Source of the DNA: a virus
Taxonomy: Duplodnaviria; Heunggongvirae; Uroviricota; Caudoviricetes
Length of the DNA: 28,060 nucleotides
Strand: one strand, 5' to 3'
IMG/VR virus record: IMGVR_UViG_2728369593_000002
Under the pieces are notes generated by a model that saw only the letters and a list, made by a program, of their open reading frames with translations, did not search any database and was not told the origin of the DNA. Of the stretch, positions 5,015 through 11,290 are shown in pieces; within the stretch, counting starts at the first letter, position 1, and each line of letters begins with the position of its first letter. Position numbers and translations under genes: made by a program.

Positions 5015-5527
5015 ATGACAACTCAAATTTCTGTTGAAACTCTCTCCCCGATCACCCATAACCAGATTCCTGTTATTACCACCGAACTTTTGGCGCAGCT
5101 TTACGGCACTGAGCCGGTGCGCATTCGCCAGAATCATCATGAGAACAAAGTACGCTTCGTTGAAGGGAAACACTTTTTCAAAGTTGTTGGTAATGACCTT
5201 AAAGAATTGCGGGTAGCTTTAAACTACTCACAAAATTTGCGGGTTACTTTAAGTAACTCACAAAATTTGCAACCATCTTTAAGAGGGTTACAAATTTCCC
5301 CGAAAGCCCGCTCCCTCATCCTCTGGACAGAACGCGGAGCAGCCCGTCATGCCAAAATGCTCGAAACCGATCAGGCGTGGGATGTGTTCGAAAAAGCTGG
5401 AAGACTGCTATTTCAGACAAAAAGGATCCGTCAGCGCCAGCTTCATGCCAGAAAAAGTTTACGACACGCGAGTTCTCTGTTATCAGCGAGGCGGTGTCAC
5501 TGTTTCCACAATTCAGTTGCGGGATGA
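5015..5527 (+). CDS. ORF6N/KilA-N-like DNA-binding domain protein (antirepressor-like moron); the C-terminus probably continues in ORF 5349..5630 after a frame break
   Basis: N-terminal region (ITTELLAQLYGTEPVRIRQNHHENKVRFVEGKHFFKV ... LILWTERGAARHAKMLE) resembles the ORF6N domain. The last 35 residues of this frame are Arg-rich and look out of frame. Confidence 0.55.
   Translation: MTTQISVETLSPITHNQIPVITTELLAQLYGTEPVRIRQNHHENKVRFVEGKHFFKVVGNDLKELRVALNYSQNLRVTLSNSQNLQPSLRGLQISPKARSLILWTERGAARHAKMLETDQAWDVFEKAGRLLFQTKRIRQRQLHARKSLRHASSLLSARRCHCFHNSVAG
5205..5294 (+). repeat. three tandem, progressively degenerate copies of a 30-bp unit inside the ORF6N gene
   Basis: aattgcgggtagctttaaactactcacaaa / atttgcgggttactttaagtaactcacaaa / atttgcaaccatctttaagagggttacaaa; encodes LRVALNYSQN-LRVTLSNSQN-LQPSLRGLQI. 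Confidence 0.55.
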
Positions 5528-5725
5528 TGATATTGTTATTTCCCTTGAGTCATGGCTGGAACTGGCGAGAGCCAATGGTTGGTTTGTTGTTCGCAGAGAT
5601 AAACTGGTGGAAAGGCTGATGCAGCTTTAAAAAAGTTCTTGCAATTTTAGCCATAAACTGCTTCAATTTCGGTATGCTTCGCAAAGCTGTATCGCGAGGC
5701 GAACCAAGCGCATGCACTTTACCAG

Positions 5726-7318: not shown

Positions 7319-7481
7319 AACACCCCAGCCAGATTTACCCGACCCGTTTACGTGGGGAGCCAGCCTTAACCTGAATGTTGCGTTGTTGTCAGCGTTAGCA
7401 CAGTGCAACAGGGATAAGGCTGATATCAGGACTTTTGAGAAAAACAGGGCAGCACAAACCAATGGCACGATTAAACGTTGA
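7203..7481 (+). CDS. Rz1: o-spanin (Rz1-like) outer-membrane lipoprotein, overlapped with and extending past Rz
   Basis: Starts inside Rz in the +1 frame; signal peptide with lipobox LSGC; proline-rich mature region (VPVIPLPASLTAETPQPDLPDP). Confidence 0.55.
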   Translation: MMIALFVLFLLAQLSGCTNTRTVYVSVPVIPLPASLTAETPQPDLPDPFTWGASLNLNVALLSALAQCNRDKADIRTFEKNRAAQTNGTIKR

Positions 7482-7647
7482 AGTTATCCCACCAGACAGC
7501 GAAACGATGAACGAGATTTTTGCAGAGATTGAACGTAAATATGCGCATCAGCCGATGACGCCAAAAGTTATCGATGAAATGCAACGCGAAGCGGCGCGCC
7601 TTGTAAGGCGAGTGACAAACACGAAGGTTACGTTTGTTCGGGACTGA
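7462..7647 (+). CDS. small hypothetical protein (about 61 aa) between spanins and terminase
   Basis: Internal Met of listed ORF 7435..7647; no recognised family; overlaps the Rz1 3' end. Confidence 0.3.
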   Translation: MARLNVEVIPPDSETMNEIFAEIERKYAHQPMTPKVIDEMQREAARLVRRVTNTKVTFVRD

Positions 7648-7704
7648 CATTACAGAAGCTCCTTTGATAAGGGGCTTCGATAATGTCACTAAGAGGAATA
7701 ATTC

Positions 7705-8455
7705 ATGGCAAAACCGGACTGGGAGGCCATCGAATCGGCATACCGGGCCGGAGTCCTTAGCCTCCGTGATATAGGCGAGAAATACGGCGTTACAGAAGGG
7801 GGCTATCAGGAAGAGGGCCAAAAAGCTTGGTTGGGTACGCAGTGGCGGTACGCAGGTTTGCAAAAATGGTACGCAAAAAAGAAAAGTGCGTACCAGCAGA
7901 AAGCCTGCCATTACTGGCCTTACACAAAAAGGTACGCAACCAAAAACAGAACCTACACTGGATACGAAACCGATACGCGGAATGCGTACCGATCCCCCGA
8001 CTAACCCATTCCAACCCGGTAACCAGCAGGCATTAAAACACGGTGGTTATGCCCGTCGCCTTCTGCTCAAAGATGAGGTGATAGAGGACGCTAAAGCGTT
8101 GACGCTCGAGGACGAATTATTTCGCCTTCGTGCTAACAACCTTGTCGCTGCAGAGAATATTGGTCGGTGGCTGGTGTCGCTGGAAGATGCTAATGGGGAC
8201 CAGGAAAGGAAGATGCTGATGGAAAATATCAGCGCCGCCGAGAAAGCAATGATGCGCAATACAGTTCGTATTGAGTCCATCGTTGGCACGCTTGCGACGG
8301 TAGGAAAAATATTTGCTGATACAGCCTACCGCAAGGCCGCCACTGATAAGGTGTCTCTGGAGGCTGATCGTCTTCGCCGTGATGCAGGTATTGATGATGG
8401 CAATGGAGAGCGTGACCTCAATGACTTCTACTCTGACATCCAAACCGACGCTTAA
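7705..8455 (+). pseudogene. terminase small subunit, split by a +1 frame break at a G5 run (7798-7802); may be a real frameshift or a homopolymer sequencing error
   Basis: N-terminal HTH MAKPDWEAIESAYRAGVLSLRDIGEKYGVTEG is in one frame. The expected continuation AIRKRAKKLGWVR ... NPFQPGNQQALKHGGYA is in the next frame and ends at 8455. Removing one G restores a single ORF of about 249 aa. Confidence 0.65.
7834..7990. repeat. array of the 8-mer GGTACGCA (4 direct copies, 2 inverted copies TGCGTACC) within the small terminase gene; candidate pac/terminase recognition site
   Basis: Direct copies at 7834, 7847, 7868, 7931; inverted copies at 7887 and 7983; degenerate GATACGAAA/GATACGCGG nearby. 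Confidence 0.55.
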
Positions 8456-9824
8456 TCCGGCTTTACGTAGTTTCTGGACTACGCGGGCACGTAACAAAGT
8501 GCTTTATGGTGGCCGGTCATCGTCAAAATCATGGGATGCCGCTGGCATTGCCATATTTCTGTCGAATAAATACACCCTGCGTTTTTGTTGTGCCCGTCAG
8601 ATCCAGAATAAAATCGAAGAGTCGGTTTATACCCTGCTCAAAATTCAGATAGACAGGTTTGGCCTGCGGCACCGTTTCCGGATTCTGAACAACAAAATCA
8701 TTAACCGGGTTACTGGCTCGGAATTTGTTTTTTATGGATTATGGCGCAACATCGAAGAAATTAAATCACTGGAGGGGATCGATGTGTTGTGGCTGGAAGA
8801 AGCCCACGCACTGACGGAATACCAGTGGAAAATTCTGGAGCCAACGATCCGTAAAGAGGGTTCGGAATGCTGGTTCATATTCAACCCCGGACTTGTTACT
8901 GATTTCGTCTGGCGCAACTTCGTTGTTGATCCGCCCGAAGGCACTCTCATCCGCAAAATTAACTATGACGAAAATCCGTTTCTGTCTGACACCATGCTTA
9001 AGGTTATCGACGCGGCGCGACGCCGTGATCCGGATGGTTTTAAACATGTGTATGAGGGCGTTCCGGAGTCTGATGATGATGCGGCAATCATCAAACTGTC
9101 CTGGATAGAAGCCGCAGTGGATGCGCACAAAACGTTAAATTTCGAACCCAGTGGAAGAAAGCGTATTGGCTTTGACGTGGCTGACAGTGGTACAGATAAG
9201 TGCGCTAACGTTTACCGTCACGGATCCGTTGTTTTCTGGGCCGACGAATGGAAGGCCAAAGAAGATGAATTACTGAAGAGCTGCCAGCGTACTTATCAGG
9301 CGGCGCTGGAGCGTGAAGCAGATATTGTTTACGACTCTATCGGTGTTGGTGCGTCTGCCGGTGCTAAATTCTCTGAAATTAACGCTGACCGGAAGAGCGA
9401 GAATGCATACGCGCGACGTGTGAATTACCAGAGGTTTAACGCTGGTGCTGGTGTGCATGAACCAGATGACGAATACAACGGCATCCCCAACAAAGACTTT
9501 TTCGCAAATCTTAAGGCTCAGGCATGGTGGCTGGTGGCTGACCGTTTCAGAAATACGTTTAACGCCATTAACAACGGAGAACAGTATCCTGTGGATGAGC
9601 TGATCAGCATAGATTCTCGTTGTCCGTTGCTTGAAAAGCTGAAACTGGAACTGACAACACCTCATCGCGATTTTGACCGTAACGGACGTGTGATGGTCGA
9701 AAGTAAAAAAGACCTCGCAAAACGCGAGATACCGTCACCAAACGTTGCTGACGCATTCATTATGGCCTTCGCGCCAATTGATACATCGCTGGATATCTGG
9801 GAACAGCTGGGGAGACAGGCCTGA
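8421..9824 (+). CDS. terminase large subunit
   Basis: 467 aa from ATG 8421 (GGAGAG Shine-Dalgarno upstream). Walker A-like YGGRSSSKS and nuclease-domain acidic residues. The listed 8313 start is rejected because it overlaps TerS. Confidence 0.9.
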   Translation: MTSTLTSKPTLNPALRSFWTTRARNKVLYGGRSSSKSWDAAGIAIFLSNKYTLRFCCARQIQNKIEESVYTLLKIQIDRFGLRHRFRILNNKIINRVTGSEFVFYGLWRNIEEIKSLEGIDVLWLEEAHALTEYQWKILEPTIRKEGSECWFIFNPGLVTDFVWRNFVVDPPEGTLIRKINYDENPFLSDTMLKVIDAARRRDPDGFKHVYEGVPESDDDAAIIKLSWIEAAVDAHKTLNFEPSGRKRIGFDVADSGTDKCANVYRHGSVVFWADEWKAKEDELLKSCQRTYQAALEREADIVYDSIGVGASAGAKFSEINADRKSENAYARRVNYQRFNAGAGVHEPDDEYNGIPNKDFFANLKAQAWWLVADRFRNTFNAINNGEQYPVDELISIDSRCPLLEKLKLELTTPHRDFDRNGRVMVESKKDLAKREIPSPNVADAFIMAFAPIDTSLDIWEQLGRQA

Positions 9825-11290
9825 TGGCACGAAACAAACAAGCCCTGCGGAGAACTGCGCAGGCCACAGCTGATGGTTATGAGAATTTTATTGCCCGCGT
9901 AGGGATGCAGACACCTAACCAGCACTCAGCATCCACCTACCGGGCTAATTTCACCAGTCGTAACCGCATGCTGGTGGAATGGTCCTATCGTTCATCCTGG
10001 ATCATCGGCGAAGCGGTCGATGCTATCCCGGATGATATGACCCGCAAAGGCATTCGCATCACTTCGGAAATTGATGCAAAAGATCGTGGCATTCTCGAAT
10101 CACAACTGGATGAGTTGCAAATCTGGGATGCGCTGAATGACGTACTGAAATGGTCGCGCCTCTACGGCGGCGCGGTGGGTTTCATCATGATTGAGGGGCA
10201 GGCACCAATGACCCCGCTGCGACCCGAAACCATCGGTAAGGGCAAGTTTAAGGGGATTCTCCCGCTCGACCGCTGGATGATTGACCCGGTACTGACCCGC
10301 CGCATTAAAGATATGGGGCCGGACCTGGGTAAACCTGAGTTTTACGATGTGGTGACCACCGCAACGGGAATTCCTGCCTGGCGCATTCATCACAGTCGAC
10401 TGATTCGCTTTGATGGCGTCACGCTGCCATTTCAGCAGAAGATGACCGAGAACGAATGGGGAATGTCGGTTGTGGAGCGTATCTGGGATCGTCTTACCGC
10501 GTTCGACAGCGCTACTGTCGGCGCGGCGCAGCTGGTCTACAAAGCGCATCTGCGCACCTACAGCGTGGAGAAGCTACGCGAGCTTATCGCACTTGGTGGT
10601 CCTGCGTATGAAGCGTTGCTGAAGAATATTGACCTGATTCGACAGTTCCAGAGCAATGAAGGCATGACGCTCATGGACTCGCGGGATAAGTTTGAAACCC
10701 ATCAGTACAGCTTCAGTGGTCTGGATGACATCCTTTCACAGTTTGCAGAACAGATTAGTGGCGCTGTTGGTATCCCACTGGTGCGGTTGTTCGGACAGTC
10801 CCCGAAGGGATTTTCTAACGGCGATGCAGACCTTGCCAACTATTACGACCGGGTAAGCTCGTTGCAGGAGAGGCGTTTACGTCTTCCGGTGCGGCGGATA
10901 CTGGACATCATGCATCGTTCGGAACTTGGCAAGCCGCTCCCGGATGATTTCACGTTTGAGTTTAACCCGCTCTGGCAAATGTCTGATGTCGATCGTTCAA
11001 CGGTGGCGTTAAATACCACCAACGCAATCAGTACAGCGCTGGGTGATGGTCTGATGACACTGAAAGCCGCTATGACTGATTTGCGCGAAAATTCTGACGT
11101 AACCGGCATCGGGGCATCCATTACCGACGAGGACATAGAGAATGCCGAAGACGAAGCGCCGCCCGGCATCGGCGAACCTGATGACGAACCGCAGGAACCG
11201 TCAGGCGGAAATCCGGTATCGAATCAGTCTACGCAGGATAGCGCGGGCGGTCGGGGACATCGTAAATGGTCGCTACGATGGTTCAAATGA
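9824..11290 (+). CDS. portal protein
   Basis: 488 aa directly after TerL with a one-base stop/start overlap (TGATG); acidic C-terminal region. Portal-like by position and size. Confidence 0.8.
   Translation: MARNKQALRRTAQATADGYENFIARVGMQTPNQHSASTYRANFTSRNRMLVEWSYRSSWIIGEAVDAIPDDMTRKGIRITSEIDAKDRGILESQLDELQIWDALNDVLKWSRLYGGAVGFIMIEGQAPMTPLRPETIGKGKFKGILPLDRWMIDPVLTRRIKDMGPDLGKPEFYDVVTTATGIPAWRIHHSRLIRFDGVTLPFQQKMTENEWGMSVVERIWDRLTAFDSATVGAAQLVYKAHLRTYSVEKLRELIALGGPAYEALLKNIDLIRQFQSNEGMTLMDSRDKFETHQYSFSGLDDILSQFAEQISGAVGIPLVRLFGQSPKGFSNGDADLANYYDRVSSLQERRLRLPVRRILDIMHRSELGKPLPDDFTFEFNPLWQMSDVDRSTVALNTTNAISTALGDGLMTLKAAMTDLRENSDVTGIGASITDEDIENAEDEAPPGIGEPDDEPQEPSGGNPVSNQSTQDSAGGRGHRKWSLRWFK

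Follow-up and report, generated by a model that had tools for sequence, protein, structure and literature searches.

Short repeats inside a prophage small terminase gene as candidate recognition sites for DNA packaging

Introduction

How pac-type small terminases choose viral DNA is poorly understood. The helix-turn-helix (HTH) domain of the SPP1/SF6 protein appears to be non-specific, the packaging (pac) site of phage ES18 is still unlocated, and for most prophages the pac site defies prediction. The same question is raised by a 28,060-nucleotide stretch of DNA from an Escherichia coli prophage (IMG/VR record IMGVR_UViG_2728369593_000002), here called the window, whose small terminase gene, terS, carries a cluster of the octamer GGTACGCA. 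An earlier note, made from the letters of the window alone, proposed that this cluster is a candidate pac site, of the sort found in pac-type phages such as P22. Are these repeats sites for packaging, and what might read them?

The answer that we favor, with a probability of roughly 0.7, is that the GGTACGCA copies are binding sites for the HTH domain of the TerS protein encoded by the same gene, and that jointly they would form the recognition part of the prophage pac site. The array is most likely to serve the start of packaging in this manner because the motif and the helix that would read it change together in related phages.

A dense array of one octamer within terS

All six copies of GGTACGCA in the window lie within about 160 bp (7834-7990) inside terS (7705-8455). 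A mean of 0.78 copies is expected for the entire window, and none of 100 dinucleotide-preserving shuffles reached six. The octamer forms the densest 8-mer cluster of the window (6 copies per 160 bp), and in 100 Markov-simulated windows no 8-mer exceeded four. One-mismatch variants elsewhere in the window occur at chance level (24 vs 18.9 expected). The four direct and two inverted copies reported in the earlier note, as well as their clustering, proved to be exact in position and number (Table 1). The conserved core of the motif is the heptamer GTACGCA, which is preceded by G in 79% of cases and followed by A in 65%.

The note had suggested counting the octamer elsewhere as a check, and had named a similar density throughout the genome as the outcome that would speak against a pac site. 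When 80 related loci are compared, the motif occurs at 28.6 copies per kb in the array (gene nucleotides 100-330, 230 bp) and at 0.062 per kb in the 5-kb flanks (~700 kb), an enrichment of approximately 460-fold. Klebsiella phage GZ7, whose complete genome is 42 kb long, has 10 heptamers, seven of which fall within 161 bp of terS and constitute the sole cluster of that genome. Thus, the motif is nearly unique to this position, and the enrichment that the note had anticipated is present.

These statistics bear on the simplest alternative, which is that the cluster reflects chance or composition, or is the site of an unrelated factor such as a restriction-modification system or a defence motif. 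The only point in favor of this explanation is the presence of GTAC inside the motif. Given the shuffling results, an enrichment that is conserved over hundreds of loci and several host genera, and the covariation between the motif and the adjacent HTH described below, it is almost certainly not the correct one.

Tandem Repeats Finder reported nothing for positions 7600-8200, and the array is therefore a set of interspersed short motifs with unrelated spacers rather than a tandem repeat. Direct copies in related loci are most often spaced at 12 bp (n=159), 13 bp (n=135), or 15 bp (n=75), and abutting copies whose starts are 8 bp apart also occur (n=50). At least three direct copies with an inverted core no more than 45 bp beyond them make up the layout of 136 of 161 GTACGC-class loci and of 41 of 45 GTTCGC-class loci. 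In these layouts the inverted core sits 18-19 or 28 bp past the last direct copy. The window conforms to this arrangement. Its direct cores are found at 7835, 7848, and 7869 and its inverted core at 7888, such that the inverted copy at 7887 is 19 bp past the last copy of the direct run (7868).

The degenerate copies that the earlier note saw nearby are a mixed group. One of them, GGTTTGCA, is a decayed member of the array (Table 1). Besides the decay of this copy, the array of the E. coli lineage has undergone the loss of one 12-bp unit when set beside the Klebsiella relatives; the unit missing from the window is TGGTACGCAAAG. Two other GATACG-like sequences, GATACGAA (7961) and GATACGCG (7972), lie inside a protein-conserved TKPIRG segment. 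Because this segment is also kept in relatives with a different HTH and motif, such as Klebsiella phage RothC, both are probably coding sequence only and lie outside the array. The copy at 7983 is the least conserved of the six, and is missing from the Chronis-type C-terminal variant and from more distant relatives.

The inverted copies suggest another explanation, in which an mRNA hairpin or a DNA cruciform regulates translation or marks a cleavage site. A perfect 9-bp inverted repeat does exist at 7867-7875 / 7887-7895, where TGGTACGCA...TGCGTACCA could form a 9-bp stem with an 11-nt loop (7867-7895), and the inverted copy located 18-28 bp past the direct run is conserved. However, direct copies are in the majority and lack a partner for pairing, and a stem would need complementarity only, not a sequence that tracks a protein helix. 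Moreover, one class of related loci, those with TAINK in the recognition helix (see below), has direct copies without an inverted core within 45 bp. A role for secondary structure is thus very unlikely.

A DNA-level signal rather than a peptide repeat

The array encodes the end of the HTH domain and the linker that follows it. The earlier note described this linker as repetitive and GTQ-rich, and this is true in part. Once a frameshift in the window sequence is corrected, three of the six copies encode GTQ, one is read in the VR frame, and the two inverted copies give VRT and MRT. The GTQ repeat is a by-product of the DNA motif and not a separate feature of the protein.

An explanation at the protein level would hold that the linker is simply a flexible GTQ/VR-rich repeat, and that the DNA repeats only mirror repeated peptides, themselves the product of slippage or duplication. 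The region is predicted to be disordered, and among relatives the copy number of the array varies by 12-bp (4-codon) units to yield TerS proteins of 249 to 266 amino acids. In conflict with this explanation, a single heptamer encodes three unrelated peptides, two of them in different forward frames and the third in reverse orientation. Over 160 non-redundant loci, GTACGCA is read as VRx 408 times, as [GSR]TQ 279 times, and in inverted form as [VML]RT approximately 80 times. The choice of codons is also extreme compared to that for like dipeptides elsewhere. Val-Arg in the linker is written GTA-CGC in 67% of cases and GTG-CGT, which is the inverted motif, in 29%, whereas the GTA-CGC share in the rest of terS and in neighbouring open reading frames (ORFs) is 3%. 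Likewise, Thr-Gln is written ACG-CA in 93% of cases in the linker vs 52% elsewhere.

Three additional observations make an origin in peptide duplication highly improbable. The spacers between copies are unconserved, the variant linkers (VR, VS, and VA) change radically while the DNA pattern GGTNNNCA is kept, and a purely synonymous GTA/GTT switch tracks a residue of the recognition helix. Because one motif serves two forward frames as well as the reverse orientation, and codon choice there is abnormal, the comparative evidence indicates that the array is not a repeat of the protein but a signal at the DNA level.

The motif changes with the recognition helix

The candidate reader of this signal is the adjacent HTH. 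AlphaFold2 models the N terminus of TerS as three helices (residues 6-15, 20-27, and 31-41; pLDDT 82-90), and residues 17-41 match Sigma70_r4 and HTH_AsnC of Pfam weakly. On these grounds, helix 3, EGAIRKRAKKL, is likely to be the recognition helix.

A set of 226 non-redundant loci was compiled in which, with no prior assumption, the commonest 7-mer of the 215 bp that follow each HTH was recorded. The top 7-mer proved to be GTACGCA for ~160 of 161 loci whose helix reads xxGAIRK, and GTTCGCA for ~44 of 47 loci whose helix reads xxTAIRK. Rarer helices have motifs of their own: GTATCCA with HGAINK (4/4), GTTTCCA with HTAINK (5/5), and GTTGCCA with HTAIQK (6/6). Three singletons pair HNTILK with GTGACCA, HVSIHK with GTTAACA, and HVAIAK with GGTTACC. 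The octamers for the five main helices are GGTACGCA (GAIRK), GGTTCGCA (TAIRK), GGTATCCA (GAINK), GGTTTCCA (TAINK), and GGTTGCCA (TAIQK).

These pairings follow a simple pattern. At helix position 33, G or T goes with A or T, respectively, at motif base 4, and the resulting GTA/GTT switch, present in every copy, is a synonymous change of Val whether the copy is read in the VR or the VS frame. At helix position 35, R, N, or Q goes with CG, TC, or GC, respectively, at motif bases 5-6, and the linker residue changes accordingly from Arg to Ser to Ala. Within the HK639-type scaffold, three orthologous direct copies vary only at motif positions 4-6 according to the helix, and the downstream inverted copy shifts in step in the three arrays that have one (GCGTAC, GCGAAC, and GGATAC). 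Both of the varying residues fall in predicted helix 3 of a confidently modeled domain. All four combinations, (G,R), (T,R), (G,N), and (T,N), exist, and this four-gamete pattern requires repeated coordinated change.

A motif that is invariant within a lineage and that covaries with the helix implies direct base readout. We lean toward a code in which residue 33 would specify base 4, and residue 35 would specify bases 5-6, of the GGTNNNCA octamer. Along with this code, the HTH and its array would form a self-contained cassette, moved by recombination among different TerS cores and TerL (large terminase) families.

The HTH domain and its array as one cassette

The TerS proteins of HK639, SEN34, Edwardsiella GF-2, Erwinia phage 49, and Klebsiella 2b LV-2017 have only their first 45-50 residues in common with TerS of the window. 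All five nonetheless carry three or four GTACGCA copies and an inverted core directly after the HTH, mostly read as L-V-R-K or E-V-R-K. The association also emerges when the motif is used as the starting point. When viral contigs were scanned for three copies of GTACGCA spaced by 12-15 bp, with no use of protein information, 79 analysable loci were obtained, 70 of which lie in an ORF with the HTH directly upstream. The recognition helix in these loci is essentially always [ST][ED]GAIRKRAK, and the exceptions are terS genes that are truncated by contig ends or frameshifted and a few unrelated tandem-repeat ORFs. Three unrelated viral contigs carry long tandem 15-bp repeats that encode (A/V)QVRT and contain GTACGCA by coincidence; these are not terS arrays.

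Exchanges between TerS proteins reveal how the two elements are inherited. Chronis and GZ7 have the HTH and the array in common but differ in their C-terminal cores (core B in Chronis, core A in GZ7), and the boundary of the mosaic between the two types is located immediately past the array. This boundary and the variation in copy number are seen at alignment columns ~170-200 and ~300. Phage RothC carries the Chronis-type core B joined to another N-terminal HTH. It has no GTACGCA, and copies of TGCGAAT occupy the equivalent place as an array of its own. Because swaps between TerS cores keep the HTH and its array together, these alignments indicate that the two travel as one cassette. The cassette also has different TerL partners, which belong to Terminase_3 in the window and to Terminase_6N in HK639, Shamal, and RothC.

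Similar arrangements exist for other HTH types. A second N-terminal HTH of unrelated appearance (MAKPDWGALQ...GLNYxSA[KR]RYIK) has its own arrays and is joined to at least three different C-terminal cores. Its SAKRYIK form occurs with TGCGAAT and its SARRYIK form with TGCGCA[AG]. With the K variant, TGCGAAT is often part of the palindrome TGCGAATTCGCA, and positions 580-650 of the RothC locus are among the examples. Distantly homologous TerS proteins of the Stx/933W type, represented by Stx-converting phage P27 (locus ~1139-1275), have four copies of GATCAT with a 12-bp period at the equivalent position after the HTH, followed by two copies of TGCGCAAA. These GATCAT copies are read as IDHE or TDHE, carry Dam GATC sites, and resemble the hexamers of P1 pac.

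A candidate recognition element for packaging

The findings above can be combined into a model for the initiation of packaging. After late-gene expression, a TerS oligomer would display several HTH domains, each of which would bind one octamer. The three to five direct copies at 12-13 bp (sometimes 15 bp), together with the inverted copy 18-28 bp farther on, would cause concatemeric DNA to be wrapped or bent on TerS. The C-terminal core of TerS would then recruit TerL, and a cut made nearby by TerL would begin a headful packaging series. The sites would be tolerated in coding sequence, with amino acids (VR, GTQ, and RT) that follow the DNA motif, because a disordered linker is the part of the protein where such a constraint costs little. 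The parts of this model that we infer are the binding by TerS, the wrapping and its geometry, where the cut falls, in which direction packaging proceeds, and that TerS-DNA contact serves packaging rather than another role.

Several known features of packaging systems are consistent with the model. Sites for pac are located inside terS in P22 (PMC11260489) and Gally (bioRxiv 10.1101/2022.10.28.514194), and at the TerS gene in SPP1 (PMC4737164). The TerL protein of the window is of the Terminase_3 or "PBSX family" type, and headful packaging has been reported for Erwinia phage 49, which bears the same HTH-array cassette (PMC7317114). The proposal of the earlier note that terS contains a candidate pac site is supported by the computational evidence of gene identity, location, enrichment, and helix covariation. 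Its choice of P22, which has a single 22-bp pac site, was a poor analogy.

The serious alternative is that TerS binds the octamers for a purpose other than packaging. The sites might mediate autoregulation of terS and terL by a roadblock or a translational effect, or might act as an accessory "enhancer" while the true pac site is elsewhere. Covariation argues for binding and is silent on its purpose, and the array is positioned within a transcribed late operon, 130-290 nt into terS. However, no promoter or operator context is evident, and an operator in the middle of the ORF of its own gene would be unusual. The array is also the only cluster in the complete GZ7 genome. Furthermore, the known role of TerS HTH domains is to recognize packaging sites, as with lambda cosB (PMC4669245) and SPP1 pac (PMC4737164), and the pac sites of P22, P1, SPP1, and Gally are in terS. 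On balance, we judge this alternative to be unlikely.

Some considerations weigh against the assignment of the array as packaging sites. With less than 100 bp between them, the HTH and the array are inherited together, so that their association is partly linkage; lineages are therefore not independent, and truly independent co-changes are few. A portion of the GTACGCA class was ascertained by motif, although sets ascertained by protein give the same picture. The array is paired with different TerL families, and for most such phages the mode of packaging is inferred only. A search of the literature gave no mapped packaging start, footprint, or binding assay for any phage that bears the cassette. 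The TerS HTH of SF6/SPP1 has little sequence specificity for the pac repeats (PMC4737164), and repeats near terS are therefore not always read specifically. Finally, coincidence of coding may account for the 7983 copy and for the degenerate copies.

Two sources of direct evidence were considered and set aside. ES18 and the LF82 prophage Gally were rejected as characterized relatives, since they have other TerS families and no such array; the TerS sequence of Gally presumably resembles Sf6 gp1. Similarly, the records of Klebsiella phages RCIP0034 and RCIP0098 start inside terS, but this is not evidence for a terminus, as neither their paper nor the Mulock announcement contains a terminus analysis. 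In the literature searched, no description of the array or of its covariation was found; most subscription journals were outside this search, and a prior description is possible.

Comparison with known packaging sites

For P22, mutations at wobble positions can inactivate pac while leaving TerS unchanged (PMC11260489). Like the candidate site of the window, pac of P22, a headful phage, is located within the small terminase gene. The P22 site is otherwise a single asymmetric element of ~22 bp (17-nt consensus) that has no array of short repeats, and P22 TerS belongs to another family. Closer analogues are provided by P1 pac, the SPP1 pac boxes, and lambda cosB.

The pac site of P1 lies within pacA, and its hexamers (TGATCA/G) contain GATC and are regulated by Dam methylation. 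It is a complex site with seven hexanucleotide repeats (PMC11260489). The window array is similar to P1 pac in being located in the small terminase gene, in spanning ~160 bp, in having many copies of a short motif, and in being unlikely to occur by chance in host DNA. In contrast, neither GGTACGCA nor its flanks in the direct run contain GATC, and this aspect of the likeness to P1 is limited to the relatives with Stx/933W-type TerS and their GATCAT copies. Additionally, PacA and TerS of the window have no detectable relation, and P1 has its repeats in two clusters on either side of the cut site, whereas the window has one direct run plus inverted copies.

The cosB site of lambda is intergenic, with binding sites that are 16 bp long. 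It contains several sites for the HTH of the small terminase in mixed orientation, with R2 opposite to R3 and R1, and the residues of the recognition helix in the winged HTH of gpNu1 are matched to base pairs to set the specificities of lambda, 21, and N15 (PMC4669245). The same logic of helix-to-base specificity is apparent in the helix-motif covariation of the window family, as are copies of mixed orientation. The systems differ in that lambda is a cos phage with a GpA-type TerL and nicking at cosN, while TerL of the window matches Terminase_3 and not the GpA type, and its relatives are reported or inferred to use headful packaging. No cosN was identified in the window, where no search aimed at it was made. 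Moreover, cosB comprises three sites plus an IHF site upstream of Nu1, whereas the window family carries four to 10 octamers inside the terS coding region.

In SPP1 and SF6, boxes A, B, and C of pac span promoters and the start of the TerS gene, and the TerS ring carries N-terminal HTH domains for which a wrapping model has been proposed, with roughly one turn of DNA between neighboring HTHs (PMC4737164). These phages and the window have in common an N-terminal HTH in TerS and groups of direct repeats at its gene. However, the HTH domain of SF6 bound pac DNA weakly and showed no specificity toward the repeats, and conservation of the boxes between SPP1 and SF6 is poor (PMC4737164). The motif of the window family is instead invariant within a lineage and covaries with the helix. 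The window array would add a new member to a known kind of element, a multi-copy pac or TerS-binding array inside terS, with a recognition code of unusual legibility.

The terS gene, its product, and its neighbors

The earlier note correctly identified the gene as a small terminase. After removal of one extra G, its product has 249 amino acids and matches PHROG 370, "terminase small subunit," over residues 1-248, which is essentially full length (E = 7e-95). No Pfam family scored above its threshold for TerS in a Pfam search. Most of the 2,230 homologues found are labeled "hypothetical protein." A phmmer search of TerS against PDB sequences gave no relative, and a Foldseek search of the AlphaFold model against the PDB returned long-helix noise only (best E = 0.66). 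The linker is followed by long C-terminal helices, and the model is confident only for the HTH and for parts of these helices.

The extra G lies within the recognition-helix codons, and it splits terS as given into two ORFs (7705-8004 and 7886-8455), in which the array lies. Among complete E. coli genomes, 42 match the 101 bp surrounding the G-run, and none of them has the extra G. Comparison with the 99%-identical E. coli prophage of NZ_CP126934 reveals at least eight private one-base insertions in the window, mostly in homopolymer runs (7798-7802, 5396, 5419, 5456, 5458, 17975, 18981, and 27567). Because the extra G is private and many like homopolymer insertions are present, the frameshift is probably a sequencing or assembly error rather than a sign of pseudogenisation. 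Programmed frameshifting at the G-run was rejected, given that relatives have one open frame and that the window has many similar private insertions. The gene for an ORF6N-domain (Rha-like) regulator (5015-5630) is also split into overlapping ORFs, in this case by four one-base insertions in 62 bp, and its E. coli orthologue is intact (582 bp). The Rha-like protein of Chronis gave no match in a search of the window.

Upstream of terS are holin, lysozyme, and Rz/Rz1 genes, such that terS is located between the lysis genes and terL. A small conserved ORF (7435-7647; PHROG 12811, E = 1e-38) sits between the lysis cassette and terS. The RefSeq label for the orthologue of terL is "PBSX family phage terminase large subunit." It is followed by a gene in the position of the portal gene (9824-11290), whose RefSeq orthologue is a DUF1073 protein, and then by morphogenesis genes.

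Table 1. Positions of the array and associated features in the window
Feature	Position	Strand	Remarks
Motif copy 1, GGTACGCA	7834..7841	+	encodes W-V-R-S (VR frame)
Motif copy 2, GGTACGCA	7847..7854	+	encodes G-T-Q
Degenerate copy, GGTTTGCA	7855..7862	+	perfect GGTACGCA in Klebsiella relatives
Motif copy 3, GGTACGCA	7868..7875	+	encodes G-T-Q
Inverted copy (TGCGTACC on + strand)	7887..7894	-	encodes V-R-T
Motif copy 4, GGTACGCA	7931..7938	+	encodes G-T-Q
Second inverted copy of GGTACGCA	7983..7990	-	encodes M-R-T, in conserved IRGxRT segment
N-terminal three-helix HTH DNA-binding domain, predicted, aa 1-45	7705..7840	+	AlphaFold2; weak Pfam matches
Likely recognition helix EGAIRKRAKKL, aa 31-41	~7795-7828	+	predicted helix 3
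Predicted disordered linker between HTH and helical C-terminal core, aa 48-103	7847..8014	+	pLDDT <50
Small terminase gene terS	7705..8455	+	PHROG 370 match; intact homologues in Klebsiella phages and 99%-identical E. coli prophages
Large terminase gene terL	8421..9824	+	Pfam Terminase_3, E = 4e-38; 35-nt overlap with terS 3' end
Run of five G (four in relatives), one-base insertion	7798..7802	+	alignment to four Klebsiella phages

Implications for prophage packaging

The candidate site of the window family is legible from sequence, and the family is broad. In addition to many Klebsiella and Pseudomonas prophages among its homologues, the terS region is present in 217 of 5,426 complete E. coli genomes (~4%). 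The covariation between helix and motif makes the specificity of TerS for pac directly and cheaply testable. Once known, the position and orientation of pac would predict which host genes beside these prophages are exposed to lateral transduction, and would permit the design of packageable plasmids or phagemids for these phages. If the proposed code is true, packaging specificity would be predictable from sequence, and could be reprogrammed by one or two substitutions plus synonymous recoding of the array. These phages would then provide the first pac-type system in which the recognition of DNA by TerS is sequence-specific, combinatorial, and directly testable.

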